In this document: positions 999 through 60,265 of the stretch, piece after piece
Layout: each line of letters starts with the position of its first letter
How positions within the stretch are numbered: position 1 is the stretch's first letter
Assembly: GCA_964642015.1 (NCBI GenBank)
Contig: CAZXLF010000004.1
Span: forward strand, 115,001-179,000
Direction: 5' to 3'
DNA: 64,000 nt
From: an uncultured Planctomycetia bacterium
Lineage (GTDB): Bacteria > Omnitrophota > Gorgyraeia > 2-02-FULL-51-18
The notes under the pieces: model-generated
What the model saw: only the letters and a program-made list of their open reading frames with translations
What the model was told of the DNA's origin: nothing
The model's database searches: none
Made by a program: the position numbers and the translations under genes

Positions 999-1297
999 TA
1001 GGCCTGCATCATTATCTGGTCATTTCGGCCATTCTTTTTTCGATAGGCCTTTTCGGCATCTTTGTCCGCAAGAATATCTTGATGGTCCTGCTTTCGATCG
1101 AACTCATTCTCAACTCAGCAAATTTGTCGTTTGTCAGCTTTTCGTCATTCCTGGGAGATCTTTCAGGGCAAGTCGTGGTATTTTTTACCATGATCGTGGC
1201 AGCAGCGGAAGTCACGGTCGGCTTGGCGATCGTCGTTTTGCTTTTCAGAAAAAAAGAAACTACTGATATTGATGATCTGAACACTCTAAAATGGTAG
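995..1297 (+). CDS. nuoK: NADH-quinone oxidoreductase subunit K
   Basis: 100 aa. Strong similarity to NuoK (MIGLHHYLVISAILFSIGLFGI...LSIELILNSANLSFV...AAAEVTVGLAIVV). Confidence 0.9.
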   Translation: MIGLHHYLVISAILFSIGLFGIFVRKNILMVLLSIELILNSANLSFVSFSSFLGDLSGQVVVFFTMIVAAAEVTVGLAIVVLLFRKKETTDIDDLNTLKW

Positions 1298-3186: not shown

Positions 3187-3190
3187 AAAT

Positions 3191-4705: not shown

Positions 4706-4743
4706 ATCGATGACAAAATCAAATTCAAACAAGAGACATATCC

Positions 4744-6192
4744 GTGGGATTTAATATTCACTTGTCTATTTTCCAAACCGAAATAGGGCTTACGTTTTTG
4801 GCGCTGGGTTGCCTTGCGCTTGATATTTTCCTAAAAAACAATGAGCGCCGCGGCAAGATCCTTGCGGATGCCGCGATGATCGGTGTGGCAATATTGTTCT
4901 TTAATCTCTGTTTCCAATGGGGAAAATTCGGCTCAAGCTTCAAAGGCTCATTCGTCCAAGATGGCGTGGCCTTTTACTTCAAGATCATATTTCTTTTGGC
5001 GGGTTTTTTCGCTCTTTTCATGGCAAGGGACTACAAAAATCAGCTGAAGCGCGGTTACGGTGAATTCACACTGCTGATCTTATTCAGTCTTATCGGCATG
5101 TCGTTCCTGGCATCAGCAAACGATTTTCTGCTGTTTTTTGTTTCGCTTGAAACGCTCACCGTCTCGCTTTACATCATGACTGCTTACCTTCGAGATAAGA
5201 ATACTTCAATTGAAGCTGGAGTGAAATATCTTATTCTGGGAGCTCTCTCTACTGCGACCTTCCTTTACGGCCTGAGTTTCGTTTATGGTGCTACAACTCA
5301 CACATCTTATTCGGGCATCCAGCAGGCATTATCCCAAGGGAATGTTCCGCCGCGGATCTTTACTTTCGGAGCGATCCTGATCATCTGCTCGCTTGGCTTC
5401 AAGATCGCCGCGGTGCCGTTCCAGCTTTGGGCTCCCGATATTTACGAAGGCGCGCCCACTCCAGTCACGGCGTATCTGGCGATCGGTTCAAAGGCTGCGG
5501 GATTTGCGGCTCTGGTTCGCCTGATGTTCACAGTTTTTTCGCCTCTACCTCCGAAAGATCTAATTTTACTTTTCAGCATTTTATCCGCTTTGACCATCCT
5601 TTACGGGAACTTAGGCGCTATCCCGCAAACAAATATTAAACGTCTATTGGGCTACTCAAGCATTGGCCATGCGGGCTATCTCTTAATAGGTCTCGCTGCG
5701 TTCCATTCATCGGGAGCAGAAGCTTTGCTGTATTATTTGCTCAGTTATCTTTTTAGCACCGGCGGTGCATTCCTGGTCATCCTGGCGTTATCAAATCAAC
5801 TGAAGTCCGATTCGATCTCTGAATTCGCCGGACTTTCGCAAAGATCGCCGCTTTTGGCGGCTGGGATGCTTTTATCTTTGCTATCGCTGGCCGGCGTGCC
5901 GCCTTTATCAGGATTTTTTGCGAAATTCTTCCTTTTATGGGCAGGTATTAAATCAGGCCTTCTGTGGCTTGCTTTAATAGGTGTACTGAACGTCATCACG
6001 TCACTTTACTATTACCTTAAAGTAGTTAAGGTCATGTATATCGACAAACCTACCGACCAAAATCCGATCACGGTCACTTTTGACCAGCGAGTCATGCAGT
6101 ATATTTCGATATTCGGGATACTTCTATTGGGAATTTACCAGGGGCCTTTCGTCCGGCTCGTCGAAGCCGCGGTCAAAAATCTTATCCGTTAG
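4744..6192 (+). CDS. nuoN: NADH-quinone oxidoreductase subunit N (GTG start)
   Basis: 482 aa antiporter-like subunit and last gene of the nuoJKLMN string. Converges on mgtE with a 4-nt overlap. Confidence 0.85.
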   Translation: MGFNIHLSIFQTEIGLTFLALGCLALDIFLKNNERRGKILADAAMIGVAILFFNLCFQWGKFGSSFKGSFVQDGVAFYFKIIFLLAGFFALFMARDYKNQLKRGYGEFTLLILFSLIGMSFLASANDFLLFFVSLETLTVSLYIMTAYLRDKNTSIEAGVKYLILGALSTATFLYGLSFVYGATTHTSYSGIQQALSQGNVPPRIFTFGAILIICSLGFKIAAVPFQLWAPDIYEGAPTPVTAYLAIGSKAAGFAALVRLMFTVFSPLPPKDLILLFSILSALTILYGNLGAIPQTNIKRLLGYSSIGHAGYLLIGLAAFHSSGAEALLYYLLSYLFSTGGAFLVILALSNQLKSDSISEFAGLSQRSPLLAAGMLLSLLSLAGVPPLSGFFAKFFLLWAGIKSGLLWLALIGVLNVITSLYYYLKVVKVMYIDKPTDQNPITVTFDQRVMQYISIFGILLLGIYQGPFVRLVEAAVKNLIR

Positions 6193-8482: not shown

Positions 8483-8588
8483 ATCGTCGTAATATTCATG
8501 GTTACTTGATTTTAGATTTTATACTCTCTATTATAAATGCACCTAAAAGTATCATAGCGTATGCTTAAATTATTTTAAATCCAAAAAT

Positions 8589-10228: not shown

Positions 10229-10386
10229 AACTGCCTCCGGAACAGCATTCGCCCCAAAGACCTTTCAATTGCAAACCGAATAGATAATTGTGGAAATTCT
10301 TTTATGCCTGATATAACATAAGTTTCCATTGCTGAGCCGTTTAGAGCTCTTTTAAACAACATAAAAAAATCATTATTCGAGGGTCT

Positions 10387-12840
10387 ATGAAAAAATTGTT
10401 CCGCTGGTTTATGGTCACGGCCACGCTTTTTACGGTCCAAGGGATTGCATTAGCAAACGATGCAGATCTTAAGATTCCCGATCTCCATGAGGGGCACTTC
10501 AACCTGTTCGGAGGACTCAGTGGTTTCCAGATCCTATTTTATGGGGCGATCGTGATTGTCGGGACGGCCGGGTTGTCCCTTTATCAATTCTTCGCGATCA
10601 AGGCTCTTCCCTCGCATCGTTCTATGCTCGACGTTGCAGAGACTATTTTTCAGACCTGCAAGACCTATCTCAAACAGCAGGTAAGATTCCTGGCGATGCT
10701 TTTCGGAATTATCGCGCTGGCCATGTCCTATTATTTTATCGCGCTTCAGCATGAATCCATAACAACACTGGGGCTCGTCTTATTCTTCTCTATCGTCGGC
10801 ATGACGGGTTCAACGCTCGTCGCGTTTTACGGGATCCGTGTGAATACCTATGCGAATGCTAGGACCGCTTTTGCCTCACTACGAGCCATACCCTGGGATG
10901 TTGTCAACATCCCTCTGCGTGCAGGCATGTCCGTGGGACTATTTCTTATCTCGATCGAACTTGTGATAATGGTAATCATACTTCTCTTTGTGCCGCGCGA
11001 CATTGTCGGATATTGCTTCCTTGGTTTTGCTATCGGTGAATCGCTTGCCGCGAGCGCGCTTCGTATAGCGGGAGGCATCTTCACCAAGATCGCCGATATC
11101 GGATCGGACCTCATGAAGATCGTCTTTCATGTCAAAGAAGACGATCCGCGCAATCCGGGCGTGATCGCTGACTGCGCGGGCGACAATGCAGGTGATTCGG
11201 TAGGCCCAACTGCTGACGGTTTCGAAACCTATGGCGTCACGGGAGTGGCGCTTATTTCTTTTATTACACTCGCGGTGAAAGAACCGAATCTCCAAGCCAA
11301 GCTCATCGTCTGGATATTTGCGATGCGCTTCCTGATGGATTTCATGTCGGGAACATCTTATTTCATAAACAAGGCTATTTCCGAAAACAAATACAAAGGC
11401 CTCAAAGAATTTAATTTCGAGGAGCCTCTTACGCGGCTCATCATGATCGCAACGGGACTTTGCATTTCCACGTCGTTCGGAATGTCTTATCTTCTCGTCG
11501 GAGACCTCCCCGATCCAACACTCTGGTGGAAGCTGGCCTCGATCATCACGTGCGGCACGCTGGCAGCCTTCCTCATTCCTGAATTCACCAAGATCTTTAC
11601 TTCCTCCCATTCTAAGCATGTCCACGAAATCGTCACAGCTTCACGCGAGGGAGGTCCTTCGCTGACCATCCTTTCGGGGATCGTGGCAGGTTCTTTCTCA
11701 GCTTTTTGGAAAGGCATCCTCATCGCAGCGCTCATGTTCGTGGCATATCTCATATCAGGCATGGGGCTGCAAAACATTATGCCTCATGCATCGGTCTTTG
11801 CTTTCGGACTTGTTGCCTACGGTTTTCTTTGTATGGGCCCTGTAAACATTGCGGTAGATTCCTATGGCCCTGTAACAGACAACGCCCAATCAATCTTTGA
11901 GCTGGCACAAACTGAGTCCATCCCAGGGATCCATAAGGAGATCGAGGACTCTTTCGGTTTTAAACCAGATTTCAAGGCAGGTAAACATTACCTAGAAGCC
12001 AATGACTCAGCCGGAAATACGTTCAAGGCCACCGCCAAGCCTGTTCTTATTGGAACGGCTGTCGCTGGAGCGACGACAATGATCTTTTCTATCATCCTAC
12101 TCCTCCAAGAACATCTTCGTTCTGCGGCTATAACCGCGGCGGCAGGCGCGCCGGTAGCCGAAAATATCGGAGAGATCCTTTTACACCAAAAGCTTTCGCT
12201 CACAGCGGCACCGGTCCTTCTAGGTTTTCTTTGCGGTGGAGCGGTGATCTACTGGTTCTGCGGGGCTTCAATACAAGCTGTCACAACCGGTGCTTACTCC
12301 GCCGTCGAGTACATCAAGAAAAACATGAAGCTTGATAAAAAAGAGGCTCACCGCGAAGATTCGATCACAGTCGTAAAGATCTGCACTGAATACGCGCAGA
12401 AAGGTATGTGGAACATCTTTCTGGGTCTACTCAGCTTTACGCTCGCGTTTGCGCTCTTCGATCCTTATTTCTTCATCGCTTATCTTTTGGCGATCGCGGT
12501 CTTCGGACTTTTTCAGGCAATGTATATGGCCAATGCGGGCGGCGCCTGGGACAATGCCAAGAAGCTGGTTGAGGTCGATTTTGGTGAGAAACACACACCC
12601 GTTCATGCCGCGACCGTCATCGGCGACACCGTGGGAGACCCTTTTAAAGACACGACCTCTGTTTCGCTTAATCCGATCATCAAATTCTCGACACTCTTCG
12701 GCATGCTCGCTGTTGAGATCGCGATCAAAATGGATCCGGCTGCAACGCGCATCGGCGGAGCCGCGTTCTTTCTGGTGGGATTATTCTTCGTCTGGAGATC
12801 CTTTTACCAGATGCGGATTCCGGAAAAGGTCAAAGCTTAG
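10387..12840 (+). CDS. hppA: membrane-bound proton/sodium-translocating pyrophosphatase (H+-PPase)
   Basis: 817 aa. Diagnostic motifs DCAGDNAGDSVGPTADGFETYG and TVIGDTVGDPFKDTTSVSLNPIIKF. It has an N-terminal signal-peptide-like extension. Confidence 0.9.
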   Translation: MKKLFRWFMVTATLFTVQGIALANDADLKIPDLHEGHFNLFGGLSGFQILFYGAIVIVGTAGLSLYQFFAIKALPSHRSMLDVAETIFQTCKTYLKQQVRFLAMLFGIIALAMSYYFIALQHESITTLGLVLFFSIVGMTGSTLVAFYGIRVNTYANARTAFASLRAIPWDVVNIPLRAGMSVGLFLISIELVIMVIILLFVPRDIVGYCFLGFAIGESLAASALRIAGGIFTKIADIGSDLMKIVFHVKEDDPRNPGVIADCAGDNAGDSVGPTADGFETYGVTGVALISFITLAVKEPNLQAKLIVWIFAMRFLMDFMSGTSYFINKAISENKYKGLKEFNFEEPLTRLIMIATGLCISTSFGMSYLLVGDLPDPTLWWKLASIITCGTLAAFLIPEFTKIFTSSHSKHVHEIVTASREGGPSLTILSGIVAGSFSAFWKGILIAALMFVAYLISGMGLQNIMPHASVFAFGLVAYGFLCMGPVNIAVDSYGPVTDNAQSIFELAQTESIPGIHKEIEDSFGFKPDFKAGKHYLEANDSAGNTFKATAKPVLIGTAVAGATTMIFSIILLLQEHLRSAAITAAAGAPVAENIGEILLHQKLSLTAAPVLLGFLCGGAVIYWFCGASIQAVTTGAYSAVEYIKKNMKLDKKEAHREDSITVVKICTEYAQKGMWNIFLGLLSFTLAFALFDPYFFIAYLLAIAVFGLFQAMYMANAGGAWDNAKKLVEVDFGEKHTPVHAATVIGDTVGDPFKDTTSVSLNPIIKFSTLFGMLAVEIAIKMDPAATRIGGAAFFLVGLFFVWRSFYQMRIPEKVKA

Positions 12841-13455
12841 TCATTTTTTCTTTAGAAAATCGACGTCCTTCTTTAATTGATAAATGCTTTGCGAATCTCC
12901 TGAATCATAATAGCCGCGCACCTGTCCTTTCTTGTCTATTAGAATGAATCGGGCGCTGTGCATGGTCGGCTCATCGATACGGCTCAGTTTAAGACTCTGG
13001 GCGATAAAGTTTATCTGTTCCATCCGCCCTGTTAAAAATTTCCATGTCCTCCGATCCGCGCCATAACCATCCGCATAGGCGGATAAAACTTCCGGCGTAT
13101 CAAATGAAGGGTCCACACTAAAAGACACAAAAAAAACATCCTTCATTTCTTTGCTAAACGCGCTCATCTTGCTCGTCATCATCGGACATTGCCCGGCGCA
13201 TCTTGTAAAAATAAAATCGGCTATCCATACTTTTCCCTCGAGATCTTTTTTAGAAACAGCTTTTCCGTTGCTGTCCGTCAGCCGAAAATCAGGGACCGGA
13301 TAATAAACGGGTAAAACCTTTTGATCATATCCAAAAAAACGGATACAAAAAACAAGGATCAACAGAACACCAAAAACAAGCTGGATATAAAGAAAAGAAT
13401 TTCTAGGGGAGGGCTTTGGCATTCGGATCGGCGAGATCTTTGATCTTCCTTGCAA
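12841..13455 (-). CDS. SCO1/SenC-family copper chaperone (thioredoxin fold)
   Basis: 204 aa. N-terminal membrane anchor. CxxxC motif in FTRCAGQCPMMTS, typical of SCO1. Confidence 0.7.
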   Translation of the reverse strand: MQGRSKISPIRMPKPSPRNSFLYIQLVFGVLLILVFCIRFFGYDQKVLPVYYPVPDFRLTDSNGKAVSKKDLEGKVWIADFIFTRCAGQCPMMTSKMSAFSKEMKDVFFVSFSVDPSFDTPEVLSAYADGYGADRRTWKFLTGRMEQINFIAQSLKLSRIDEPTMHSARFILIDKKGQVRGYYDSGDSQSIYQLKKDVDFLKKK

Positions 13456-15710: not shown

Positions 15711-15716
15711 TAGTTT

Positions 15717-16376: not shown

Positions 16377-16395
16377 AATGACACTTCATTCGAAA

Positions 16396-17103
16396 CTAAA
16401 GCATTTTCCGCAGCTCTTCCTTTTTGAGGATAGAGATCTGATGAGGCCTGATATCAATGAGTTTTTTCCTTTTAAGCTCGTAAAGCTGGCGCGCCACAGT
16501 TTCACGCGCAACGCCTATTCTTTGCGCAAGTTCCTCGCGCGTGAATGGCACAGAAAGAATATTATCAGATTCGGTTTTATTACCATTGGCTGCCTGCAGC
16601 ATATCCAGCAGGAATTTGATCAGTCTCTTTTTGCTATCCTTTAAAGAAACCTCTTCTATCAACTCGCTGAAACATTGAAGGCGGTTCGCGAATAAGTTAT
16701 TCAGTGTATGCGACAGCTTCGCGTTCTCTTGGACCAGCTTTACATAATGATCCCGGGAAAGGAACCAGACATTGCTCGGCTCCAATGCTTCTGCTGAAGA
16801 AAAACAGCTCCAGTTCGTCGATCCGGGGTTGCAGGCGCAGGTATCACCGGGACCCAAGGTTTCCAGAATCTGTTCCCGGCCGGCGGAAGAGGTACGGTAG
16901 ATCTTTACTCTTCCCGACCGAACAAAAAATATGCGCTCGCAGGATTTACCCTCAAAAAAAAGGGATTCGCCCTTTTTAAAGGCCTTTTCATTCAAACAAT
17001 TTTTTACTATTGTGAGCTCTTCTTTGGACAAGCTTTGGAAAAATGGGACATTCTCAACAGCTATTGGCATCATTTGCTTCTTCCGAAAGCAAATATGCCA
17101 CAA
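16396..17103 (-). CDS. Crp/Fnr-family transcriptional regulator
   Basis: cNMP-binding beta-roll (…FFEGKSCERIFFVRSGRVKIY…) plus a C-terminal HTH (RETVARQLYELKRKKLI). The true start is probably the internal MMPIAV. Confidence 0.8.
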   Translation of the reverse strand: MWHICFRKKQMMPIAVENVPFFQSLSKEELTIVKNCLNEKAFKKGESLFFEGKSCERIFFVRSGRVKIYRTSSAGREQILETLGPGDTCACNPGSTNWSCFSSAEALEPSNVWFLSRDHYVKLVQENAKLSHTLNNLFANRLQCFSELIEEVSLKDSKKRLIKFLLDMLQAANGNKTESDNILSVPFTREELAQRIGVARETVARQLYELKRKKLIDIRPHQISILKKEELRKML

Positions 17104-17153
17104 TATCTAAGTACACGCAACAGAATTTCTCACCAACGCCCTCTCAAACAATC

Positions 17154-17411
17154 TTAACAGGAAATAACACCTGCCCCTATGAGCGATAAACGATTGGGGC
17201 GATAGTTGAGTTCGAAACGGATCTTTCCTTCACGTGCCAACCAACCAATCGCCTGATGCAGAAGTGCCGGATCGTTCACTTGTATCTCTTTGGCCAGATC
17301 TTCCGTTGTTTTGTCACCTTTTTCCAAGGCCTTATAGATCTTCCCCGCTGTTTCTCCAATGGCCAGATATTGTTCCTGCACGCTGAACCCTCCTTTATTG
17401 TCAGAATTCAA
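17154..17411 (-). CDS. small winged-helix protein (DUF2582-like)
   Basis: 85 aa with a helix-turn-helix-like pattern (…TTEDLAKEIQVNDPALLHQAIGWLAREGKI…). Confidence 0.45.
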   Translation of the reverse strand: MNSDNKGGFSVQEQYLAIGETAGKIYKALEKGDKTTEDLAKEIQVNDPALLHQAIGWLAREGKIRFELNYRPNRLSLIGAGVISC

Positions 17412-19344: not shown

Positions 19345-19755
19345 TCACGCAGCCCCTAAACTCTGATAACGTTCATTTCTTGCCCGTTCTTCAAGCGCCT
19401 CATCCACTTCTTCAATCGCCTCAAGCACCAGCGGCAAATAACGATCCAATCCGCAATTAAGCGTATCACGCAGCTCACAGACATCATTCTTTTTCTGCGA
19501 ACGGCAAGACATGCAAATATTTTCGCGGACCGCTTTATTATATGATTCGATTTTCGGATCGTTGAGACGCTGGGCGAGGATCACAAGCTGAGGCAGATAA
19601 CGAAGAAGGGCACATCCGTTCGGATCTTTAGTATGACACACACCATCAGCGCCCATATCCATACACTTGCCGCATACATGACGCTTTACCGCTTCTTCAA
19701 ACTCGACTTTGTTCCAGAAGAAGTAATTATTCCGATTTTCGCTCATCGAAATCAC
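19345..19755 (-). CDS. hypothetical Cys-rich protein with internal duplication (two CxxC-x8-C-x8-C…RYLP modules)
   Basis: 136 aa. Module 1 CGKCMDMGADGVCHTKDPNGCALLRYLP. Module 2 CMSCRSQKKNDVCELRDTLNCGLDRYLP. I recognise no family. Confidence 0.5.
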   Translation of the reverse strand: MISMSENRNNYFFWNKVEFEEAVKRHVCGKCMDMGADGVCHTKDPNGCALLRYLPQLVILAQRLNDPKIESYNKAVRENICMSCRSQKKNDVCELRDTLNCGLDRYLPLVLEAIEEVDEALEERARNERYQSLGAA

Positions 19756-51290: not shown

Positions 51291-52775
51291 TTATGCGCCG
51301 CTATGACAATCCGAGCAGTTTGTCTCATTCCACCCTTCGATTTCTACAGGATGTTTAAAATCAAGTCCATTTATATTTTTTTCTATGGATCCCTTTGGTC
51401 CTTGCTCTATGATCAGATGGCATGCTTTGCAGTCTTTTGTGATCGTTGCTCCTTGAACAGTTTTATGTTCTCCATCGTGGCATCGAAAACATCCCGGTGT
51501 GTAAAGATGCCCGATATTTTCAGGATGCGTGTCCCACCGAACTTTCATTTCGGGGAACATGTTATTTTGGAACATCACTTTGACGGCTTCCGCCGCTTTT
51601 TCTATCGCATCTTTGTGAGCCGCATAAAAATCCGGCATTTTTTCTTTATAATAATTTTCTAATGAGTTCTTTATCGTGTCAAGCGCTTCATCAGTCGATT
51701 TATATTCCTTCGAAAGAACCTCCATGCCTTTTTCCCTGATCTTCGGGATCAACGCATCAATATCCCCTCTTTGCATCGCCTCATCCATCAAGCGGTAAGG
51801 AGGTTCAAAGCGGTGTGTCGGACGATTATGGCAGTCAATACAATCCATTTTCCTTACCAATGACGCTGGGGGCTCAGTGTCTTTATACTTGGAGCTCGAA
51901 GTTGTATATATTGTCTCTTTTCCGTCTTTATCTACTGTTTTTATCCAGCTTATCTTCTGTCTTTTTTCATCATCGGCTACATAGTAGAGGTCTTGATCGA
52001 TATTCATATGAGCGTGGACACCGCGGGTCTGTCCGTGACCTGCGCCCACATTCATCAGCATGCGCAGATGCCATTCCGAGTTTTTATTGTCAGATAAAAA
52101 ATATGTGCGGTTAAAGTCCATCGTACTGAAAAGTTTTCCGGGCCAGTGGCATTGTTTGCACGTTTCTTCGGCAGGCCGCAGATCCTTAACCGGAGTTTGT
52201 ACCGGTTTTTTATAAGTATTGGACAAATATTTGATCACCTGACGCGCGCCGGAGATCTTAGAATGCACATACCAGTCCGCTCCGGCACCGATATGGCATT
52301 CGACGCATTTAACGCGGCCATGCGGTGAATTTTTATAAGTTGTGAATTCCGGTGTCATAACCCCATGACATAAGACACCGCAAAACTGGACGGATTCCGT
52401 ATAGTGGAAGGCTTTATAAGCGCCGATCACTGACATCAATATTAAAAGTGAAGTGCCTGTAATAAAAACAAGTAGCATGTTTCGATGCTGCGAAATAGAA
52501 AGATCGATACGGAACCTTTGGAGCTCTATGACCGGAAGGCCCTTTGCGATACGGTTCTTCTTCCAGAAATAGCCGATAGGGATCAACAAAAGCCCCAAAA
52601 TCAAGAACGCCGGCAGGATCAGGTAAGTGATCAGTCCTAGATATAAATTCTTGCCATGATCAAAGAAATCCAGCGCAAAAAGGAAAACTTCTATCGAAGC
52701 GACGGTAATGCTGATCATCACGCCGAGGTAGGTGATCACATTGTAAAACAAAGATGAGAATTTTTTGTCGCTCAA
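51291..52775 (-). CDS. membrane-anchored multiheme c-type cytochrome (7 haem motifs; NapC/NirT-related, ImcH/CymA-like)
   Basis: 2-3 N-terminal TM helices, then an atypical CGVLCH (CX3CH) and six CxxCH motifs (CVECH, CKQCH, CIDCH, CFRCH, CKACH, CSDCH). 494 aa. Confidence 0.7.
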   Translation of the reverse strand: MSDKKFSSLFYNVITYLGVMISITVASIEVFLFALDFFDHGKNLYLGLITYLILPAFLILGLLLIPIGYFWKKNRIAKGLPVIELQRFRIDLSISQHRNMLLVFITGTSLLILMSVIGAYKAFHYTESVQFCGVLCHGVMTPEFTTYKNSPHGRVKCVECHIGAGADWYVHSKISGARQVIKYLSNTYKKPVQTPVKDLRPAEETCKQCHWPGKLFSTMDFNRTYFLSDNKNSEWHLRMLMNVGAGHGQTRGVHAHMNIDQDLYYVADDEKRQKISWIKTVDKDGKETIYTTSSSKYKDTEPPASLVRKMDCIDCHNRPTHRFEPPYRLMDEAMQRGDIDALIPKIREKGMEVLSKEYKSTDEALDTIKNSLENYYKEKMPDFYAAHKDAIEKAAEAVKVMFQNNMFPEMKVRWDTHPENIGHLYTPGCFRCHDGEHKTVQGATITKDCKACHLIIEQGPKGSIEKNINGLDFKHPVEIEGWNETNCSDCHSGA

Positions 52776-52868
52776 TGCGTTATCCTTCTTTGATCACAAA
52801 TAAAAAAGCGCCGGATATCCGATCCAACGCTTTTTCATCAAGTGTTTCGGCCTTTAAACCGGCAACGA

Positions 52869-53147
52869 TCATCCGGCCGCCGGGGCTTTCCCTGCCGCTT
52901 TGTATGTTTCGGTATCGGGTGTTTCTTTTATCTTTCTGACTTTTTGCCCGTATTCATTCCAGTCATGCTTACCATCATCTTTCTTTGGAATTTTGTCAAC
53001 ATGGCAAGCGGTGCATTTGGGTTTTTCTTCATCGGGAAACGCCGCCTTGTAGATCTTGGCCTGTTCAAGATTGGCTAACGCAATTCCCGTTGAGCAGAAA
53101 CCCACGATGACCAGTGCAATGGTCTTTGTTAATTTTTTCATACGCAT
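52869..53147 (-). CDS. periplasmic monohaem cytochrome c (MtoD-like by position)
   Basis: 92 aa. Signal peptide. Single CTACH. Confidence 0.65.
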   Translation of the reverse strand: MRMKKLTKTIALVIVGFCSTGIALANLEQAKIYKAAFPDEEKPKCTACHVDKIPKKDDGKHDWNEYGQKVRKIKETPDTETYKAAGKAPAAG

Positions 53148-53181
53148 ATTTCTCCAAGTTAGTTATATGCCACAAATACCG

Positions 53182-55293
53182 TCAGCCCCAATTGATCTTT
53201 GCTTCAAGCCAAAACGTATGGGCGTTGTAACTGCCTATTTCAGCCTCATTGGCGCTGTACTGATACCATGAATATTTCGGCTCGAGCGACAGATCTTTGT
53301 TCAGCTTCCAGGAACAGCCTAACGTTAGATCCACCTGATGAAAATCAGCGCCATAGGGCATTCCAATGATACTAAAATCTTGAAAGTTAGCCGCGCGAAT
53401 ATAATCCGCAGTGCCGGTCAGGATAATATCCTTTGTCAAAGCATACTCGGCACTGAACAGCGTGGTATAAGAGTCGAAATTAAATGTCGGGATAGCTGAC
53501 GCCAGACCCGTGGAACGATCAGGAGTAATGATCTTTCCGTCTTGAAAAGAAAATGATGCCGTCAGCAAAAGATCGTCCACCGGCTGGCTTGATAAATCCC
53601 AAGTATATATATTTGAAATAAGTGCCGTACCTACACTCACATCGTCATTGGGCAGACCCCACGCGGTGTACCGCTTATCCTGGAGCTGATAGCGAAAAGT
53701 TGGCTGAAACCAGCGGACAGGTTTCCAGCTGACGCGAGTTTCAAATTCATCCGTCGCCGTGGACTGTTTATCAATAAATGTAAGCGAAGTATCGCCACCG
53801 TTATTGAATAGATGATTGTAATGAATATCATCCAGTTTATGACGGACTTGAGCCGTTAATGTAACGTGATTCAATGGAAAAATCTGCGCGCCAAGCGTGC
53901 CGGAACCCCTGTACATATGGTCAAGTTCCTGGCGGTTTAAAGTGGTAGCTGCACTGGCACTTGTCAGGTTCATATAAAGGTCGTCCCTGACTTGTTGAAA
54001 ATCATAATCGTTATAAATGGAAACATGCGGAATCCCGCCATAGCGAAACGATACGCTTTCACCATAGCTCATCCTCTTGTCCTGGTTGTTGGCCACATCG
54101 ATCTGATCAATGGATCCGTCCGGCACCGCAGGAGAAATATCCTGAGGCGTTGTAGATTCGCTTCGGCGGTTGATAGCTTCGACCTTAAACCTTGTAATGG
54201 CCGTTATCGGGTTAAGCAATGTCGTCATGAAACTCATCACGCCTGTTTGCGATATGTAATGATTATCCGCAAACGCATTCACCCACTGCTTTGGATTGGC
54301 AAAATTATGGAGCACTCCATTGCCTGTCAACTCATTCAAATTATCCAATTCATGGCTATCGACCTGCGAAAAACGATAGTCGCCGGACACATAGATTTTC
54401 TCTTTCCAAAACCACCGGTTCACACCCAAGAGTGTGGTAAGCAAATCCGTGCGCGGAGACTGATACAGGTCGCGGATCTTGGCATTCGCGTCAGGTGAGC
54501 CGGACACCACTGTATCAAGTTGTTTTTCTTCGCGCATATCATTAGCACGCGTAAATTCCCATCTTTGCTCCGCATTCCAATTAAAACCGGCGACCGTGTC
54601 ATCCAGCTTAGCGCCAAATGAATCAGTTATTTCGTCGATCTGCTGCCACGAGGGAGCGATCTTTCTAACCGTCGATGCGCCAACCCCCGGCGCATTATCG
54701 GTTACACTCGCCCACGATAAGCGCGACTTTGTACCCTCCTTAAAATCACGCTCATAGTCTAACGTGATATCAGGCATATTTTTGATTGAAAGCCCTGCCT
54801 CGACGCCGAACTTTCCAATATTAAGCGCCAATTCTTTATCTGTGTAATTTTGCGCAAGATTAACAAAAGGCCGATATAATCCGCCTGCGTTGCTGTAATA
54901 TTTACGAAACTCGCTATAATCAAAATTAAGATATGCGATGTCATCCTTTTTAAAATGGGCCGATCCGCTGTAATCTCCGTCTTCGGGTATGACATGGCCT
55001 TCTGATTCCAGCGATACATCATTTGAAAATTCCTTATTCAGCTTAAAATCTTTTACACCAAACGCAAAACCGTCATCCATCCAGTGAAGTGCACGGAACT
55101 TGCTCGAATCCCCATCGATAAAAGTGTATCGAGCAGGATCGGCCGTAAGAGAAAAATCTATAGGGTCGGTCTTCGTCTCGGCCGAGTCGCCGGCTAGCAA
55201 AGAATTGGACAATGATAACATCAACAAAAAACCGGACGACACTGCGATAAAATTTTTATAATCCATTTTGCGCATGAATAGCTCCTTAATCAA
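53182..55293 (-). CDS. large outer-membrane beta-barrel protein (MtrB/MtoB/PioB-like porin candidate)
   Basis: 703 aa. Signal peptide. Alternating hydrophobic/polar beta-strand pattern throughout, rich in Tyr/Asn/Asp/Gly. Overlaps the upstream cytochrome gene by 4 nt. Confidence 0.55.
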   Translation of the reverse strand: MIKELFMRKMDYKNFIAVSSGFLLMLSLSNSLLAGDSAETKTDPIDFSLTADPARYTFIDGDSSKFRALHWMDDGFAFGVKDFKLNKEFSNDVSLESEGHVIPEDGDYSGSAHFKKDDIAYLNFDYSEFRKYYSNAGGLYRPFVNLAQNYTDKELALNIGKFGVEAGLSIKNMPDITLDYERDFKEGTKSRLSWASVTDNAPGVGASTVRKIAPSWQQIDEITDSFGAKLDDTVAGFNWNAEQRWEFTRANDMREEKQLDTVVSGSPDANAKIRDLYQSPRTDLLTTLLGVNRWFWKEKIYVSGDYRFSQVDSHELDNLNELTGNGVLHNFANPKQWVNAFADNHYISQTGVMSFMTTLLNPITAITRFKVEAINRRSESTTPQDISPAVPDGSIDQIDVANNQDKRMSYGESVSFRYGGIPHVSIYNDYDFQQVRDDLYMNLTSASAATTLNRQELDHMYRGSGTLGAQIFPLNHVTLTAQVRHKLDDIHYNHLFNNGGDTSLTFIDKQSTATDEFETRVSWKPVRWFQPTFRYQLQDKRYTAWGLPNDDVSVGTALISNIYTWDLSSQPVDDLLLTASFSFQDGKIITPDRSTGLASAIPTFNFDSYTTLFSAEYALTKDIILTGTADYIRAANFQDFSIIGMPYGADFHQVDLTLGCSWKLNKDLSLEPKYSWYQYSANEAEIGSYNAHTFWLEAKINWG

Positions 55294-56114
55294 TATCGGA
55301 GTTTATCGCTAAAATTTGAACCATGCACCGCCGTATGGCATCCTGCGCTCCAACAGGTGCCTTCACTCCATTGGCCTGTCGCGGCGCCTCCGCCGTGATT
55401 ATGCGCGCCGATGATCGGGACATTCAGTTCAGTGTGGCAACGCAAACAAAGGTTATGATCGCGTGCGATCAGCATCTTTTCATGGATCGAGCCATGGACT
55501 TTATGGCAAGTCTGGCATCCTTCGCGCAACGCTTCATGTTCCCACGCAAACGGGCCCCGCTTGTCCTTATGGCACTTGAAACAGGCTTCATTGACATCGC
55601 GCATCGTCGTCGCAGACCAAGGTCTGACTTCTTCTCCATGCGGGGAATGGCAATCTGCGCAACTCATTTTGCCTTCAAGCACCGGATGATGATACGGCAA
55701 ACGGAATTCCATTTTTTTATCGGTATGACAAGCAAAACAAGCGGAAGGATCCTTCTTCGGATTGATAATATTTCCTCGCCCGCCGCCCGCATCGACGTGA
55801 ATGCTCGCCGGGCCGTGGCACATTTCACAATCTTTCACGTCGCCATCTTTGACGCTGATCCGGGCATGCGTAGACAAACGAAATTCCTTCTCTTCTTTCT
55901 CGTGGCACGACGCGCAGGTATCCGAACCGACATATTTAGCCCCTTTAAAAGCCAAAAGTTTTGCTAACGAGCCCTCATTGTTATCCACATTGACAACATT
56001 TTTATCCTCTGCCTGAACTGCGCCGGAAACAAAAAATAGAATGATAACTAAGGCAAAAAATTTGGCCGGCTTTTTAATGCGAAAAAAATTTGAAAAATCC
56101 TTTTGTTTTATCAT
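55290..56114 (-). CDS. periplasmic multihaem c-type cytochrome (7 CxxCH plus 1 possible CX4CH; MtrA/MtoA/OmaB-like)
   Basis: 274 aa. Signal peptide. CASCH, CEMCH, CFACH, CADCH, CFKCH, CQTCH, CLRCH and a terminal CWSAGCH. Very high haem density, about one per 34 aa. Confidence 0.8.
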   Translation of the reverse strand: MIKQKDFSNFFRIKKPAKFFALVIILFFVSGAVQAEDKNVVNVDNNEGSLAKLLAFKGAKYVGSDTCASCHEKEEKEFRLSTHARISVKDGDVKDCEMCHGPASIHVDAGGGRGNIINPKKDPSACFACHTDKKMEFRLPYHHPVLEGKMSCADCHSPHGEEVRPWSATTMRDVNEACFKCHKDKRGPFAWEHEALREGCQTCHKVHGSIHEKMLIARDHNLCLRCHTELNVPIIGAHNHGGGAATGQWSEGTCWSAGCHTAVHGSNFSDKLRY

Positions 56115-56230
56115 CGCCGACGCAACTATTCTAAATTTCCGATTTAAGTATCAATATTAAAAGTTATAAAAATATAATTAATTTTGACTTATATTAACAT
56201 ATTTTTGATTTATAGTTCAACCTAAACTGC

Positions 56231-56278
56231 TTTTAGACTAGCAAATAGTCTAAGAGCAGTCTGTGACAAATGTCACTT
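56231..56278. promoter_or_regulatory. 8-bp inverted repeat (TTAGACTA-N5-TAGTCTAA) next to a CRP-type site TGTGA-N6-TCACT in the cytochrome/ccsBA divergent region
   Basis: TTTTAGACTAGCAAATAGTCTAAGAGCAGTCTGTGACAAATGTCACTTAA. The CRP-like core is at 56263-56278. Confidence 0.4.
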
Positions 56279-56441
56279 AATCTAACCTCTCGGCATTTCA
56301 TGCAACAGGCTAGATCGAATCTGCGCTTAAAACCATCACACGCAAATCACGAATGGACGAACATAAATTGTGCCAACCGACAACATTCGTTGAACAACTC
56401 AGTTTATGTTAGAATAACCGGATCCTTTTGATTAAAAGAAT

Positions 56442-58220
56442 ATGCGCCATACTAAAAAAAATAAAAAAACCTCTTTCTGGCAATCGCTTATTGACGCGTT
56501 GGGTTCTGTCTACTTCGCAGTATTCTTGATCGCAGCGCTCGCCGCGATTCTGATCTCATCGACATTCTTGGAATCCAAATACGGTACTCCATTCGCGCAG
56601 AAGTTCTTTTATCAGGCAGATTGGTTCGACATCATTCTGTCCTTGATCTGGATAAACATGTTCCTAGCGGTCGTCAAACGTTTTCCATTAAAAAAGTATC
56701 ACACGGGATTCGTCGTAACGCACATCGGTATATTGCTCCTTTTAATTGGAGCTCTTTTATCCAGAATGATCGGCATGAACGGTCAGATGGTCTTGCGTGA
56801 AGGTCAAAAACTGGATTATGTGACGCTGGAGACCTATCAGCTGGCAGCGCATACTTCAAATGGCAAGGCCGCAGCATTTAGTTTGAAGCCTAAAATAAAC
56901 GGGACTTTTTCACGTGATCTTGGAAATGGGTTCAAATTAACGGTCGATCGGATCATTGAATCGGCCAAAATATCGAGTGAAGTCGAAGATGACCAAAATT
57001 CCTCATCCAACGCTGCGATTCATTTTTTTCTTCGGAGCGAACGCGCAGGGTTCGAAAATTCCTTCTGGCTTGTCGAGCATGGTGAAGATCCGGGACCAAC
57101 AATGGATCTGGGTATGGCCAATTTCGAACTAAAAAGAGGTACGGCCTCCTACCACAAATCATCCGCTGCAGCTGACATCGCCGGACCAATGATCAAAATC
57201 ACTATGGGAGAGCTGTCTCAAACGCAAACCGTAGAAGTGACACCGGCCATCGGCAAAGAAATCCCGCTTGGCGATGGCAAGTTTAAAATGATCGATTTGA
57301 TCTACTATCCGGATGCGCGTGTCGGCGACGGCAACAAACTTGTGAACGTTTCCGATGTTCCCAATAATCCCGCCGTGGAATTCGACATTGCGAATTCAAA
57401 AGGCATCATACGGCATTTCACAAAATTCGCTTTATTTCCCGATTTTGAATCCATGCACGGCAAAAAAGAGGACGAAGGGCTCAATATCGAAGCCGAATTA
57501 CTTGCTGGATCAGAAACAAAAACTCCGGAAATGCATGGAGCTGCCAGTCTCACCTTTTATGCACCGATCAATCCTGCAGACCCATGGACCTATGAATCGC
57601 ACACGCGCCATGGGGATGGCGCGCATGGAGTCATTGAGCAAGGGAAAAATTATCCGGCCGGATGGATGGATTTTTCTATCAGCATCGATAAATTATTGCG
57701 CAGAGCAGTGATTACGCAGAAAGTCGAACCTTTGCCGTTCGGAGCCAAAGGTGAATTTGTGGTACAAACGTCCCTTTCCAAGAACGGAAAAGATCTGGGA
57801 ACTCAGTGGCTGGCCGAAGGAGGCACTGCTTTTTTTGACTCACCGGATGGGCCGGTCCTTGTAGCATTGGGGCGTAAATCCGAAAAGGTGCCCTTTATGC
57901 TTGGTCTTAAAGACTTCCGCAAAGTGGACTATCCGGGGACGGCACAGCCTTCTTCATTTGAAAGCGATGTCAAACTGGAGGACGCCGATGCGGGTATCAC
58001 GATCGACAAAACGATTAAAATGAACAAACCGCTCGATTACAAAGGCTACCGGATCTTCCAGTCCTCTTATGCTCAAGATGAGGAAGGAGAAACATCTATC
58101 TTCACGGTGGCAAAAAATCCTGGTATTATCTTCATTTATTCCGGAGCGGTGATCATGTTCGCCGGCGTGATCATGCTTTTTTATTTGAAACCATTCTCTT
58201 CTTTCCACGAAAGGAAATAG
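56442..58220 (+). CDS. ccsB: system II cytochrome c biogenesis protein CcsB/ResB
   Basis: 592 aa. N-terminal ResB pattern (FWQSLIDALGSVYFAVFLIAALAAILISSTFLESKYG). Large periplasmic domain. C-terminal TM helix. Confidence 0.8.
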   Translation: MRHTKKNKKTSFWQSLIDALGSVYFAVFLIAALAAILISSTFLESKYGTPFAQKFFYQADWFDIILSLIWINMFLAVVKRFPLKKYHTGFVVTHIGILLLLIGALLSRMIGMNGQMVLREGQKLDYVTLETYQLAAHTSNGKAAAFSLKPKINGTFSRDLGNGFKLTVDRIIESAKISSEVEDDQNSSSNAAIHFFLRSERAGFENSFWLVEHGEDPGPTMDLGMANFELKRGTASYHKSSAAADIAGPMIKITMGELSQTQTVEVTPAIGKEIPLGDGKFKMIDLIYYPDARVGDGNKLVNVSDVPNNPAVEFDIANSKGIIRHFTKFALFPDFESMHGKKEDEGLNIEAELLAGSETKTPEMHGAASLTFYAPINPADPWTYESHTRHGDGAHGVIEQGKNYPAGWMDFSISIDKLLRRAVITQKVEPLPFGAKGEFVVQTSLSKNGKDLGTQWLAEGGTAFFDSPDGPVLVALGRKSEKVPFMLGLKDFRKVDYPGTAQPSSFESDVKLEDADAGITIDKTIKMNKPLDYKGYRIFQSSYAQDEEGETSIFTVAKNPGIIFIYSGAVIMFAGVIMLFYLKPFSSFHERK

Positions 58221-58221
58221 T

Positions 58222-59820
58222 ATGGCGCCTCACAAGAACGAATTAGTAAGAAGCATTCTCTTTGGTGCCGTATTATTCTCGCTGATCCTATTCGGCTCTA
58301 AACCCTCTCTTAAAGACCCGTCACTCGGCATCGCAATCCAGCACAACGGGCAAGTAAAATCTTTTGACGCCTTTTGTCGAGAGACAGTTCAAACTATCAC
58401 AGGGAAACAAAAATGGGATCATCGTTCTCCGGAATCCGCGGTTTTTCGGGTCCTGCGGGATAACAATGCGGCCGGTGATCTTAAATGGATCCGCATTGAT
58501 CTGCCTGAACTCATTTCTAAAATTGGTCTTGTACAAGGTCAGGTCTTTTATTCCTACAACCAGGTCATCCCATCTATCGGCGAGGTACAATGGCTCGTTC
58601 AAGAGGCGCGAAATAAACGCGACAAAGACTTGAGGCCTACGAAATTGGAGCAAGCGGCGGAAACTCTTTATGGAAAACTTTCAATAGCAAAAGACCTGAT
58701 GAGCGGCGATTCTATCAACGTCATCCCTCCGAAAGAAGGCAAGGTCTGGTCTTCTCCGTATGCCAGCGAAGGTTCGCGAAGCGACGAATTCAGAAAACTC
58801 GTGTCATTGTCAGCTCCGGGAAAAGAAAATGACTTTCGAGAAGGCTGCAAAAAATGGATCGAACAGACGAACCATGATACGGCGTCGGCATTCCGAGCTA
58901 AGATCAAGCGGGAACTCATTTATTTTAGCCTTCGCCCTTTTCAATGGGCATGGATCCTTTATTTAGTATCCTTCATCTTCCTTTCTTTTTTTAAAAAAAA
59001 GAACTTTGGCATTTTAATCGGTTTAGCCAGTGTTTTTTGCGCGTTCGCTCTCCATACTGACGGACTCATTCTAAGGGTACTCATTCTCGGACGACCGCCT
59101 GTTTCAAATATGTACGAATCCATGATCTACATGAGCTGGGTCGTTATGGCCGTCGCGGTCATCTTTTCTTTGACCAACAAAAATCTCGTTTTCATATCGT
59201 CTGCTTCGATGATCAGCGCTCTAGTCGTCATCTATGGAAATCTTTTGCCGTTGGATCCCAGTCTGGAAGTATTAGTGCCTGTTTTACGCAGCAATTATTG
59301 GCTTACGATCCATGTTCTGACGATCGTTTCAAGTTACGGCGTGTTCGGAGTCGCAATGGCGCTAGGCCATCGGCATCTGATCCTCTCCATGTTAGGCAAA
59401 CTGCCCAAATCTGCGGAACAAACTTCCGCTCAGCTTATTTACCGCGTGATCCAACTGGGCGTACTTTTGATCGGCATCGGCACCACGCTCGGAGGCGTCT
59501 GGGCCAATGAATCCTGGGGAAGATTCTGGGGCTGGGATCCCAAGGAAACCTGGGCTCTGATCACGCTCTTAGGTTACTTAGTGGTGATTCATCTAAAATA
59601 TTCTAAACTGATTTCAAATTTCTGGCTTGCGATGAGCGCAGTGCTCGGATTCTTACTGGTGCTTATGACATGGTACGGCGTGAATTTTGTGCTCGGACGA
59701 GGACTTCACAGCTACGGATTCGGCTCAGGCGGGATCGTTTGGATATTTTATTATCTCGGTTTTGAATTTATCTTCGTCACAGCTGTATTTTACAGAAATT
59801 TTTCGCATAAAAATGCTTAA
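58222..59820 (+). CDS. ccsA: system II cytochrome c biogenesis protein CcsA/ResC with a long N-terminal periplasmic extension
   Basis: Trp-rich haem-handling motif WGRFWGWDPKETWA with conserved His residues. 532 aa. The first ~230 aa form an extra domain. Confidence 0.85.
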   Translation: MAPHKNELVRSILFGAVLFSLILFGSKPSLKDPSLGIAIQHNGQVKSFDAFCRETVQTITGKQKWDHRSPESAVFRVLRDNNAAGDLKWIRIDLPELISKIGLVQGQVFYSYNQVIPSIGEVQWLVQEARNKRDKDLRPTKLEQAAETLYGKLSIAKDLMSGDSINVIPPKEGKVWSSPYASEGSRSDEFRKLVSLSAPGKENDFREGCKKWIEQTNHDTASAFRAKIKRELIYFSLRPFQWAWILYLVSFIFLSFFKKKNFGILIGLASVFCAFALHTDGLILRVLILGRPPVSNMYESMIYMSWVVMAVAVIFSLTNKNLVFISSASMISALVVIYGNLLPLDPSLEVLVPVLRSNYWLTIHVLTIVSSYGVFGVAMALGHRHLILSMLGKLPKSAEQTSAQLIYRVIQLGVLLIGIGTTLGGVWANESWGRFWGWDPKETWALITLLGYLVVIHLKYSKLISNFWLAMSAVLGFLLVLMTWYGVNFVLGRGLHSYGFGSGGIVWIFYYLGFEFIFVTAVFYRNFSHKNA

Positions 59821-60041
59821 TCCGTCTGGCGGTTCAGAATATCGATAAGTTCCTGCACAAGAACAGCGTGGCGTTTCTCGTCCGACACCAACTTTTCCAA
59901 TTGATGCTGAACTTCATGATTTTCATGATTTTTCTTGCATTCCTCCAACAAAGCCGTGTATGAGTCGACGCTCTTTACTTCGAGATCGAGCATTTTTTTG
60001 AACCGGATAGCCCAGAGTTCTTTGTAAAATTTCCTTTCCAT
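59817..60041 (-). CDS. hypothetical small helical protein with ExxH motif (downstream member of a coupled pair)
   Basis: 74 aa. …LEKLVSDEKRHAVLVQELI…. 1-nt stop/start overlap with the upstream 74-aa ORF. Confidence 0.4.
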   Translation of the reverse strand: MERKFYKELWAIRFKKMLDLEVKSVDSYTALLEECKKNHENHEVQHQLEKLVSDEKRHAVLVQELIDILNRQTD

Positions 60042-60265
60042 CAGCGTGAGCCCAATTCAACTATAAGTTTAAGAAGTTCTGTATGCTGTTTAGTATCGTT
60101 TATCAAGATCTTAAAGATCTCTTTCACCCGGTCCCGATCGACCTCATTAAAATAGCCAATATCTTCGCTGCTGATCATATAAAGCGTCATGGTATAGATG
60201 TCTATTTCTTCATCCTGCAGAGACATCGCGATCTTTTTCATGAATTCGGTGGAAAGAATTTTCAT
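60041..60265 (-). CDS. hypothetical small helical protein (upstream member of a coupled pair)
   Basis: 74 aa. Same length and predicted helical character as its partner. No family recognised. Confidence 0.4.
   Translation of the reverse strand: MKILSTEFMKKIAMSLQDEEIDIYTMTLYMISSEDIGYFNEVDRDRVKEIFKILINDTKQHTELLKLIVELGSR

Follow-up and report, generated by a model that had tools for sequence, protein, structure and literature searches.

Does a compact group of cytochrome and porin genes in an uncultured member of the Omnitrophota specify a route for electrons through the cell envelope, and in which direction would electrons run along it? Little is known of the energy metabolism of Omnitrophota, which are abundant in groundwater, sediments, and peat and have for the most part not been cultured. 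The genes lie in a 64-kb window (the whole stretch of DNA analysed, positions 115,001 to 179,000 of contig CAZXLF010000004.1), for which an initial annotation had proposed an extracellular electron transfer conduit. The list of open reading frames (ORFs) bears out the arrangement described there, and all six ORFs were verified in position and strand. Four co-directional minus-strand genes encode an octahaem periplasmic cytochrome (cytA), a β-barrel porin, a small monohaem cytochrome (cyt92), and an ImcH-type inner-membrane cytochrome (imcH), and they diverge from the plus-strand system II cytochrome c maturation genes ccsB and ccsA (Table 1). A motif scan reproduced the haem counts given earlier for the 274-, 92-, and 494-amino acid (aa) proteins, and the three cytochrome ORFs are the only ones of at least 60 aa in the entire window that bear a CXXCH motif; their clustering is therefore not a matter of chance. 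We consider it likely that the six genes form a self-contained, two-component, MtrC-less trans-envelope electron conduit of the Mtr/Mto kind, wired to an ImcH-type cytochrome through a small cytochrome and provided with its own haem-attachment genes, a function that we infer from homology, fold, and synteny.

The product of cytA aligned with the MtrA chain of the Mtr complex (PDB 6r2q_A) at an E-value of 3.2e-35 and 125 bits, in keeping with its earlier label as MtrA/MtoA-like. The haem sites of cytA correspond to MtrA haems 1, 2, 3 or 5, 4 or 6, and 7 to 10; the protein had rightly been described as having fewer haems than decahaem MtoA/MtrA, and the alignment accounts for its eight sites by one missing di-haem unit. 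On the DmsE/MtrA decahaem model (NCBIfam TIGR03508), cytA scored 162.3 bits, in two stretches, against a curated cut-off of 192.2; judged by its sequence, it is a homologue of MtrA, yet not a TIGR03508 member by the curators' rule. Hydropathy revealed a hydrophobic N-terminal segment (residues 17-35) that is signal-like and, as the signal region lacks Cys, of the non-lipoprotein type. More than 2,000 octahaem cytochromes of this family were found. All 120 listed relatives of cytA have 8 or 9 haem sites, and 119 of them share a terminal CX4CH site of the form C[FWY][ST][AG]GCH. In cytA this site (CWSAGCH) aligns with the CXXCH of MtrA haem 10, which faces the cell surface in the Mtr complex (PDB 6R2Q); the last haem of cytA would be the counterpart of this surface-exposed haem. 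The cytA monomer model, obtained from a 26-sequence alignment, had a predicted local distance difference test (pLDDT) score of 49.9 and was put to no use in the fold search or in the estimate of chain length.

The porin ORF has one Cys, no haem site, and a single N-terminal hydrophobic, signal-like segment. Its AlphaFold2 model (pLDDT 81.6, predicted TM-score 0.71) shows a continuous run of ~26 long strands after the signal peptide, with ~45 residues before the first strand and no plug. The protein is thus modelled as a barrel rather than as the non-barrel or soluble protein that would have spoken against a conduit, and its strand count accords with the 26-28 anticipated for the MtrB family. 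In a Foldseek search with this model, MtrB was the best match (E 3e-13, TM-score 0.62/0.66), and every other match had a TM-score of 0.46 or less. At the sequence level, no Pfam or NCBIfam model matched the porin at E ≤ 0.01, including the MtrB/PioB models PF11854 and TIGR03509, and a Pfam scan of ten distant family members gave no match to PF11854 either. A profile of 18 porin sequences retrieved only chance matches among PDB sequences, and MtrB was not found at E ≤ 10. Because this profile search found no MtrB, we hold the claim of homology between the porin and MtrB to the level of the fold. The earlier description of an MtrB/MtoB-like porin thus stands for the plug-less fold and its best structural match but not for sequence, which matches no MtrB/PioB profile. 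A TonB-dependent receptor was also tried as an identity for the barrel and was rejected on the missing plug, the missing TonB box region, the ~26 strands, and the lower TM-scores.

Relatives of the porin are numerous. A word-indexed search gave 20 of them, mostly from metagenome-assembled genomes (MAGs) of Omnitrophota, and a scan of a genome collection with a 6-sequence porin alignment gave six loci, which is an undercount relative to the exhaustive hidden Markov model search, where the family comprised 868 cluster representatives, 369 of them at E ≤ 1e-30. Among the best 150 relatives there are 30 long members (at least 740 aa), and 27 of these carry a haem site in an N-terminal extension. 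Five long porins with such a site were scanned against Pfam (P0238, P0279, P0287, P0222, and P0259; 790-914 aa), and all five contain one or two PSCyt1 cytochrome c domains N-terminal to the barrel; one cluster of fused porins comes from Roseibacillus (Verrucomicrobiota). In the related locus L016, an octahaem cytA with a CWSAGCH site is retained ahead of the fused porin (6672-9098). By joining a cytochrome domain to the barrel at its periplasmic end, these proteins provide independent evidence that the barrel family works with cytochromes.

The absence of sequence similarity to MtrB/PioB, together with weak matches of the cytochromes to NrfH and NrfB models, would suit a locus without any trans-outer-membrane conduit, in which a NapC/NrfH-like quinol dehydrogenase and soluble cytochromes form an ordinary periplasmic chain and the barrel is an unrelated channel for solutes or for iron or haem. 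This explanation is very improbable in view of the fold, the adjacency of cytA and porin, and the fusions. The barrel lacks a plug and has ~26 strands compared to 22 in TonB-dependent receptors; Foldseek sets MtrB (0.62-0.66) apart from the receptors (at most 0.46); cytA and the porin are adjacent in every examined locus with a contig extending upstream of the porin; distant members have cytochrome domains fused to the barrel; and no catalytic partner was found nearby.

The 494-aa protein had been described as an ImcH-sized cytochrome with N-terminal transmembrane (TM) helices and seven haem motifs, and its architecture is that of ImcH, which Zhong and Shi define by three N-terminal TM helices, an adjoining atypical CX3CH, and six CXXCH sites (PMC6295460). 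Hydropathy places its TM segments at residues 10-28, 47-65, and 100-118, and its haem sites are a CX3CH (CGVLCH) at 132 and CXXCH at 157, 206, 312, 429, 449, and 487. For ImcH of Geobacter sulfurreducens (GSU3259), the reported TM helices are 13-35, 45-67, and 100-122, and Table S3 gives haem sites at 132, 156, 205, 311, 428, 448, and 486 (PMC6295460). The spacing of the six CXXCH sites, 49/106/117/20/38, is identical in the two proteins, which also share a length of ~500 aa, the position of CX3CH beside TM3, and a NapC/NirT-like segment near TM3. The ImcH haem pattern is kept in all 120 listed relatives of a family with more than 5,600 matches. Residues 99-191 match the NapC/NirT N-terminal region (PF03264; 38 bits), the NrfH model reached 55 bits against a cut-off of 134, and NrfH is the only solved relative of the protein (E 1e-4). 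This match does not signify an Nrf identity, because it is confined to the NapC/NirT-like N-terminal part, a known component of ImcH (PMC6295460). The combined label of ImcH-CymA-like can accordingly be narrowed to the ImcH type: three TM segments and seven haem sites exclude the tetrahaem CymA or NapC/NirT type, which has one TM segment and four haems. Omnitrophica homologues of ImcH and CbcL were counted previously (PMC6295460); the accessions of the three ImcH homologues were not among the ten relative clusters that we looked up.

An Nrf-type nitrite reductase or a sulfite reductase module was considered as well and rejected, as the locus has no CXXCK haem and no NrfA-like or sirohaem gene nearby, and the NrfH and NrfB scores lie far under cut-off. 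The initial annotation had named kinship of the cytochromes with nitrite or sulfite reductase subunits, next to a catalytic partner, as an outcome that would count against it; instead, cytA matches MtrA, and the genes scanned within ~10 kb on either side included no catalytic partner with haem or molybdenum.

The small cytochrome cyt92 has one CXXCH site (CTACH) and a hydrophobic, signal-like N-terminal segment. No Pfam or NCBIfam model matched it, and no PDB cytochrome, MtoD included, was found at E < 0.9. The proposal of an MtoD-like monohaem cytochrome is therefore retained only for a secreted monohaem cytochrome within a conduit cluster, since similarity to MtoD is undetectable and cyt92 is much smaller; it is at most a functional analogue of MtoD. 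An hhalign comparison of the cyt92 family with the porin-fused PSCyt1 domains, of which cyt92 might have been a free-standing form, gave a probability of 48% over 38 columns around the haem site. A metagenome scan produced 67 relatives, and 22 of the 23 closest ones adjoin cytA, porin, or imcH, most commonly in the order cyt92-cytA-porin-imcH, which marks cyt92 as a real component of the module. Besides the His of the haem motif, another His is conserved (G-x-H-D), and the mature part lacks Met, which together suggest from sequence a bis-His ligation of the haem.

Comparison of related loci (numbered with an L) showed strong co-conservation of the module genes, the contrary of the scattering in relatives that would have undermined the proposed unit. 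The recurrent core is the cytA-porin pair, and ImcH, cyt92, and long CcsBA are frequent accessories. Wherever the contig of a related locus continues upstream past the porin gene, the gene directly upstream of it is cytA, and this holds down to porin identities of 29-36%. The imcH gene follows the porin, or the porin and cyt92, in L003, L006, L008, L019, L024-L026, L029, L040, and L085, and lies a few kb downstream, past a second copy of cyt92, in L021. All six window genes recur in the same set in L006 (porin identity 45%). In L003-L005 (36%), a 9-haem cytA, the porin, and imcH are followed by Rieske/cytochrome b genes, a membrane-anchored 9-haem cytochrome, and long ccsBA, and haem-copper oxidase genes are nearby. 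Locus L008 (38%) has two cytA-porin pairs (1185-6217 and 9227-17339), and L086 has the order crp-hemerythrin-membrane protein-cytA-porin with a multicopper oxidase downstream. In L085 (8682-18792), a cyt91-cytA-porin-imcH series precedes a CbcL-like protein (multihaem with a Ni_hydr_CYTB cytochrome b) and then a Rieske/cytochrome b pair, which places both inner-membrane entry points of the Geobacter type, ImcH and CbcL-like, beside one Mtr-like conduit.

A further cytochrome with nine haems (~415-427 aa), a signal peptide, and a C-terminal membrane anchor was observed in L003 (15159-16427), L008 (6227-7474), and many of L020-L039, where it often follows imcH or accompanies Rieske/cytochrome b. 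As it is absent from the window, the window holds a minimal version of the module.

The partners beside cytA-porin vary widely among loci, which would fit a general outer-membrane socket that serves a surface or secreted terminal reductase encoded elsewhere, as DmsEF serves DmsAB in Shewanella, and does not itself act on metals or humics. In L009 (9195-14915, from a groundwater Omnitrophota MAG; porin identity 46%), the genes directly after the pair encode a molybdopterin oxidoreductase (776 aa) and a tetrahaem cytochrome of the NapB-like type, an arrangement that recalls dmsEFAB, and a second molybdoenzyme, an Fe-S protein, and a NarJ-like chaperone are encoded upstream. The pair stands alone in L007 (55%) beside molybdenum-cofactor biosynthesis genes. 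We nevertheless regard the socket as improbable for the window, where the genes scanned within ~10 kb either side include no reductase, and the commonest conserved neighbours of the pair are ImcH, the small cytochrome, and CcsBA rather than enzymes.

The maturation genes were assigned by Pfam matches of the ccsB product to ResB (PF05140, 96.8 bits) and of the ccsA product to Cytochrom_C_asm (PF01578, 111 bits, residues 294-491). CcsA has the tryptophan-rich WWD-type motif WGRFWGWD and scored 161.6 against the cut-off of 187.6 on the CcsA equivalog model, which fits a divergent long form. By hydropathy, TM segment 8-26 is followed by ~210 hydrophilic residues and then by eight TM segments, so that the extra periplasmic domain noted earlier is present, at ~210 aa in place of ~230. 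The window CcsA is 54% identical over 499 aa, N-terminal domain included, to the long CcsA of L008. Long ccsBA adjoins the module in the window, L003, L006, L008, L009, and L011, and L035 and L036 have only a long ccsA next to it; the ccs genes of L024, L027, L032, and L085 belong to the same locus but are separated from the module by several kb, with L024 having a partial ccsB ~5 kb upstream. The two pairs of L008 differ in their maturation genes. A short standard ccsBA (443 + 266 aa) stands beside the cytA with a degenerate last site (ECIDHH instead of CxSAGCH), and the long ccsBA stands beside the CX4CH cytA and the CX3CH imcH. This single case suggests that the long CcsBA is a dedicated lyase. 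A broader proposal, which we put forward tentatively and regard as rather unlikely in full, is a separate Mtr-type lineage extending across the Planctomycetes-Verrucomicrobia-Chlamydiae (PVC) superphylum from Omnitrophota to Verrucomicrobiota and present here in minimal form, whose long CcsBA, with its ~210-aa domain, would be specialised for the CX4CH of cytA and the CX3CH of ImcH, and which would give very small cells an MtrC-less link to humics, minerals, or partner or host cells.

In the conduit that we favour, the heptahaem ImcH-type cytochrome, held by three inner-membrane helices, would exchange electrons with the quinone pool, the existence of which is implied by the complex I subunits encoded in the same window. 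Mature cyt92 (~66 aa, probably bis-His) would carry electrons over the periplasm, and octahaem cytA, threaded into the plug-less barrel of ~26 strands, would wire them across the outer membrane. No lipoprotein cytochrome was found in the 64 kb, and none of the three haem proteins has a Cys at a lipobox position. Because the module contains no MtrC/OmcB-like surface lipoprotein cytochrome, the conduit would have two components like MtoAB/PioAB. The divergently encoded long CcsB/CcsA would attach the haems, perhaps with a specialisation in CX3CH and CX4CH sites, and expression would probably be under a Crp/Fnr-family regulator.

Several points weigh against this reading. The family is known here from genes, and relatives of the module adjoin haem-copper oxidase genes, a multicopper oxidase, or molybdoenzymes, which fits several uses. 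There is no extracellular cytochrome, so contact with solid acceptors is left unexplained. The cytA score falls under the DmsE-family cut-off, the protein has 8 haems instead of 10 CXXCH sites, and the barrel would have to be spanned by this shorter haem chain. The likeness to Geobacter ImcH is one of architecture and motif spacing. Finally, a terminator-like hairpin before imcH weakens the picture of a single operon, and the four genes may not form one uninterrupted transcript.

With respect to direction, we modestly favour outward flow over inward flow, that is, quinol oxidation coupled to extracellular Fe(III), humics, or similar acceptors, because quinol oxidation is the only known function of ImcH and because L085 has an adjoining CbcL-like cytochrome. 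The same hardware could be run inward, with electrons that come from Fe(II) outside the cell, from reduced minerals or humics, or from a partner cell passing via cyt92 to a terminal oxidase and, by a reversed ImcH, to quinones. The MtrC-less two-component layout is that established for MtoAB/PioAB of iron oxidisers, the gene content parallels Sideroxydans mtoD-mtoA-mtoB-cymA, and the module includes a small periplasmic monohaem cytochrome, all of which would suit inward flow. Haem-copper oxidase genes with Rieske/cytochrome b in L003, the multicopper oxidase in L086, and SCO1/SenC in the window, a copper chaperone typical of oxidase assembly, point the same way, and Omnitrophica MAGs have been scored in a FeGenie-based study with genes for both iron oxidation and iron reduction (PMC8478452). 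On the other hand, the only role in which ImcH has been implicated to date is quinol oxidation, with homologues only in Fe(III) reducers (PMC6295460), and imcH of L085 is paired with a CbcL-like protein as in Geobacter reducers. A probable bis-His cyt92 would be low-potential, unlike typical oxidase donors, and the window contains no carbon-fixation or oxidase genes. On balance, we rate inward flow as possible but doubtful.

The trans-envelope conduit proposed here resembles MtrAB of Shewanella (PDB 6R2Q), MtoAB of Sideroxydans, PioAB of Rhodopseudomonas, and DmsEF in having a multihaem cytochrome gene directly upstream of a large barrel. It is akin to MtrAB in the homology of cytA and in the structural match of a barrel of ~26 strands to MtrB, and it shares with MtoAB/PioAB the lack of an MtrC-type surface cytochrome in the module. 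In contrast to MtrA/MtoA/PioA, cytA has 8 rather than 10 haems and a family-wide CX4CH at the last of them; the window porin, with its one Cys, lacks the N-terminal CXXC of Shewanella MtrB; and the inner-membrane partner is ImcH rather than CymA or MtoC/MtrH. The mto cluster of Sideroxydans lithotrophicus ES-1 comprises mtoD (Slit_2498), mtoA (2497), mtoB (2496), cymA/imoA (2495), and a monohaem cytochrome gene (Slit_2494). It thus unites the same four parts, monohaem cytochrome, multihaem cytochrome, porin, and NapC/NirT-related quinone-linked cytochrome, in one cluster. The initial annotation had the window mirroring an order mtoA-mtoB-mtoD-cymA; the actual order, mtoD-mtoA-mtoB-cymA, is instead that commonest among the relatives (cyt92-cytA-porin-imcH), and the window differs in having cyt92 after the porin. 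ImcH, with 7 haems and 3 TM segments, differs from CymA of Sideroxydans (4 haems, 1 TM segment), and the iron-oxidising physiology is that of Sideroxydans itself, whereas the window is known from genes.

A survey published in 2018 reported no mtrAB/mtoAB genes beside any imcH (PMC6295460), whereas imcH comes after an MtrA-like/MtrB-like pair in the window and in ten or more related loci. Within the literature searched, this is the first case of ImcH being physically linked to an Mtr-type outer-membrane conduit. Porin-cytochrome (Pcc) complexes of Geobacter (OmaB/OmbB/OmcB; Ext) are similar in combining an octahaem periplasmic cytochrome with a porin and in having ImcH and CbcL as inner-membrane entry points; they differ in that they require a lipoprotein cytochrome at the surface (OmcB/ExtC and others) and in their porins, for which a smaller size of ~20 strands is predicted. 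With Cyc2, the distant porin members, though not the window porin, share the N-terminal fusion of one or two monohaem cytochrome c domains to a barrel; the fused domain here is of the PSCyt1 type, the barrel has ~26 strands compared to the small barrel of Cyc2, and the fused form still pairs with an octahaem cytA (L016).

Omnitrophota and Verrucomicrobiota belong to the same PVC superphylum, and the porin family reaches the latter through Roseibacillus. He et al. (2017) described freshwater Verrucomicrobia clusters with a divergent porin beside a periplasmic cytochrome with eight conserved haem sites and proposed electron transfer to humics (PMC5615132), and putative porin-multihaem cytochrome clusters are reported from peat Verrucomicrobia in a preprint (10.64898/2026.05.27.727921). 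By description, these clusters resemble the cytA-porin pair in the divergent porin and the eight haem sites; they differ in often including an extracellular multihaem cytochrome, and the passages describing them do not mention ImcH, a small monohaem cytochrome, CX4CH, or CcsBA linkage. The literature searched contained no description of the module in Omnitrophota and no account of the imcH linkage, the conserved CX4CH, the small cytochrome family, the PSCyt1-porin fusions, or the co-travelling long CcsBA. The new points are the imcH adjacency, the conserved CX4CH terminal haem, and possibly a dedicated CcsBA.

A compact extracellular electron transfer route would make Omnitrophota candidate players in iron and humic cycling. 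Standard markers, namely the MtrB/PioB profiles and the DmsE-family cut-off, miss this large family of 868 porin cluster representatives and more than 2,000 octahaem cytochromes. A small four-gene cassette with its own maturation genes is heterologously testable, and with the conserved CX4CH terminal haem and the co-travelling long CcsBA, the idea of substrate-specific system II haem lyases can be put to a concrete test.

The gene starts were revised in one case. The ORF list gives the porin as 703 aa from TTG 55293 (53182-55293), from which the initial annotation had derived a 4-nucleotide overlap with cytA. An AAGGAG motif lies seven nucleotides before the in-frame ATG 55275, the database copy (697 aa) has the same start, and the resulting 14-nucleotide gap after the cytA stop is comparable with the gaps of 12-23 nucleotides in relatives. 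The overlap is therefore probably a start-codon artefact, and ATG 55275 is on these grounds the most likely start. The TTG start of imcH is preceded by AAGGA. Uniform G+C content across the region gives no sign of recent import.

The hairpin between cyt92 and imcH has a folding energy of -24.9 kcal/mol compared to -9.7 ± 2.4 in shuffles (z = -6.4) and an A-tract/hairpin/U-tract architecture. Possibly acting as a terminator or attenuator, it might set the ratio of the outer-membrane parts to ImcH, and it may partly uncouple imcH transcription from the upstream genes. A scan for promoter and terminator consensus sequences over 50.9-60.4 kb gave counts at the level of shuffled sequences and missed this hairpin.

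Table 1. Positions of the module genes and of other features in the 64-kb window.
Feature	Position	Strand	Remarks
imcH-type inner-membrane heptahaem cytochrome	51291..52775	-	494 aa (database copies: 486-aa start)
Hairpin with U-run, terminator- or attenuator-like	52799..52839	-	between cyt92 and imcH; from fold energy
cyt92, small secreted monohaem cytochrome c	52869..53147	-	92 aa, ~66 aa mature; one CTACH
Outer-membrane β-barrel, MtrB-like fold	53182..55275	-	697 aa from ATG 55275; ~26 strands
cytA, periplasmic octahaem MtrA-like cytochrome	55290..56114	-	274 aa; 7 CXXCH + CWSAGCH
Imperfect 15-nucleotide inverted repeat ACTGCTTTTAGACTA / TAGTCTAAGAGCAGT	56226..56260		93% complementary, 5-nucleotide spacer; beside CRP-like site
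CRP/FNR-type palindrome TGTGACAAATGTCACT	56262..56277	.	inside 327-bp divergent intergenic region 56115-56441
ccsB (ResB-type), system II cytochrome c biogenesis, long form	56442..58220	+	592 aa; Pfam ResB
ccsA (ResC-type) haem lyase, long form	58222..59820	+	532 aa; Pfam Cytochrom_C_asm
Two tandem 74-aa ORFs	59817..60041 and 60041..60265	-	overlap ccsA end by 4 nucleotides on opposite strand
TGTGA-N6-TCAC sites	19817, 20938, 45751, 49520, 56262		one intragenic
Crp/Fnr-family regulator gene	16396..17103	-	
Cytoplasmic Cys-rich protein	19345..19755	-	
Three NuoL/M/N-type antiporter-like subunits	1291..6192	+	
Membrane H+-pyrophosphatase	10387..12840	+	
SCO1/SenC copper chaperone	12841..13455	-	

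Five distinct sites in the window carry the palindrome TGTGA-N6-TCAC (seven matches over both strands), compared to 0.38 matches expected. Sites are located upstream of hsp20 and of the Cys-rich protein gene within a rubrerythrin-Dps-Hsp20 stress cluster, upstream of a hemerythrin gene two genes beyond imcH, and in the divergent region between cytA and ccsB. A perfect site is found in the same position in L006. Matching sites precede cytA in L006 and L020 and both crp and hemerythrin in L086, giving four in 10.8 kb of these loci where ~0.5 were expected. Besides the Crp/Fnr-family gene of the window, a Crp-family gene lies beside the module in L003 and L086. The distribution of the palindromes suggests one redox or stress regulon that would include the conduit. 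An imperfect inverted repeat is present beside the CRP-like site of the divergent region (Table 1).

Among the other genes of the window, the NuoL/M/N-type subunits, the H+-pyrophosphatase, and SCO1/SenC make a quinone-linked respiratory chain plausible and probably also point to a copper oxidase in this organism. The Cys-rich protein (108-136 aa, two Cys clusters, no Pfam family) is also encoded in L009 (2615-2977) and L008 (13666-13992), and the window copy is 55% identical to that of L009. Its gene is directly beside long ccsBA and the conduit in L008 and L009, whereas in the window it lies 36 kb off, behind a perfect CRP-like palindrome. The two tandem 74-aa ORFs at the end of ccsA have no Pfam match, and each contains an E-x-x-H-like motif (DEKRH and DTKQH); together they might make up a di-iron protein of the four-helix-bundle type, each contributing one half.

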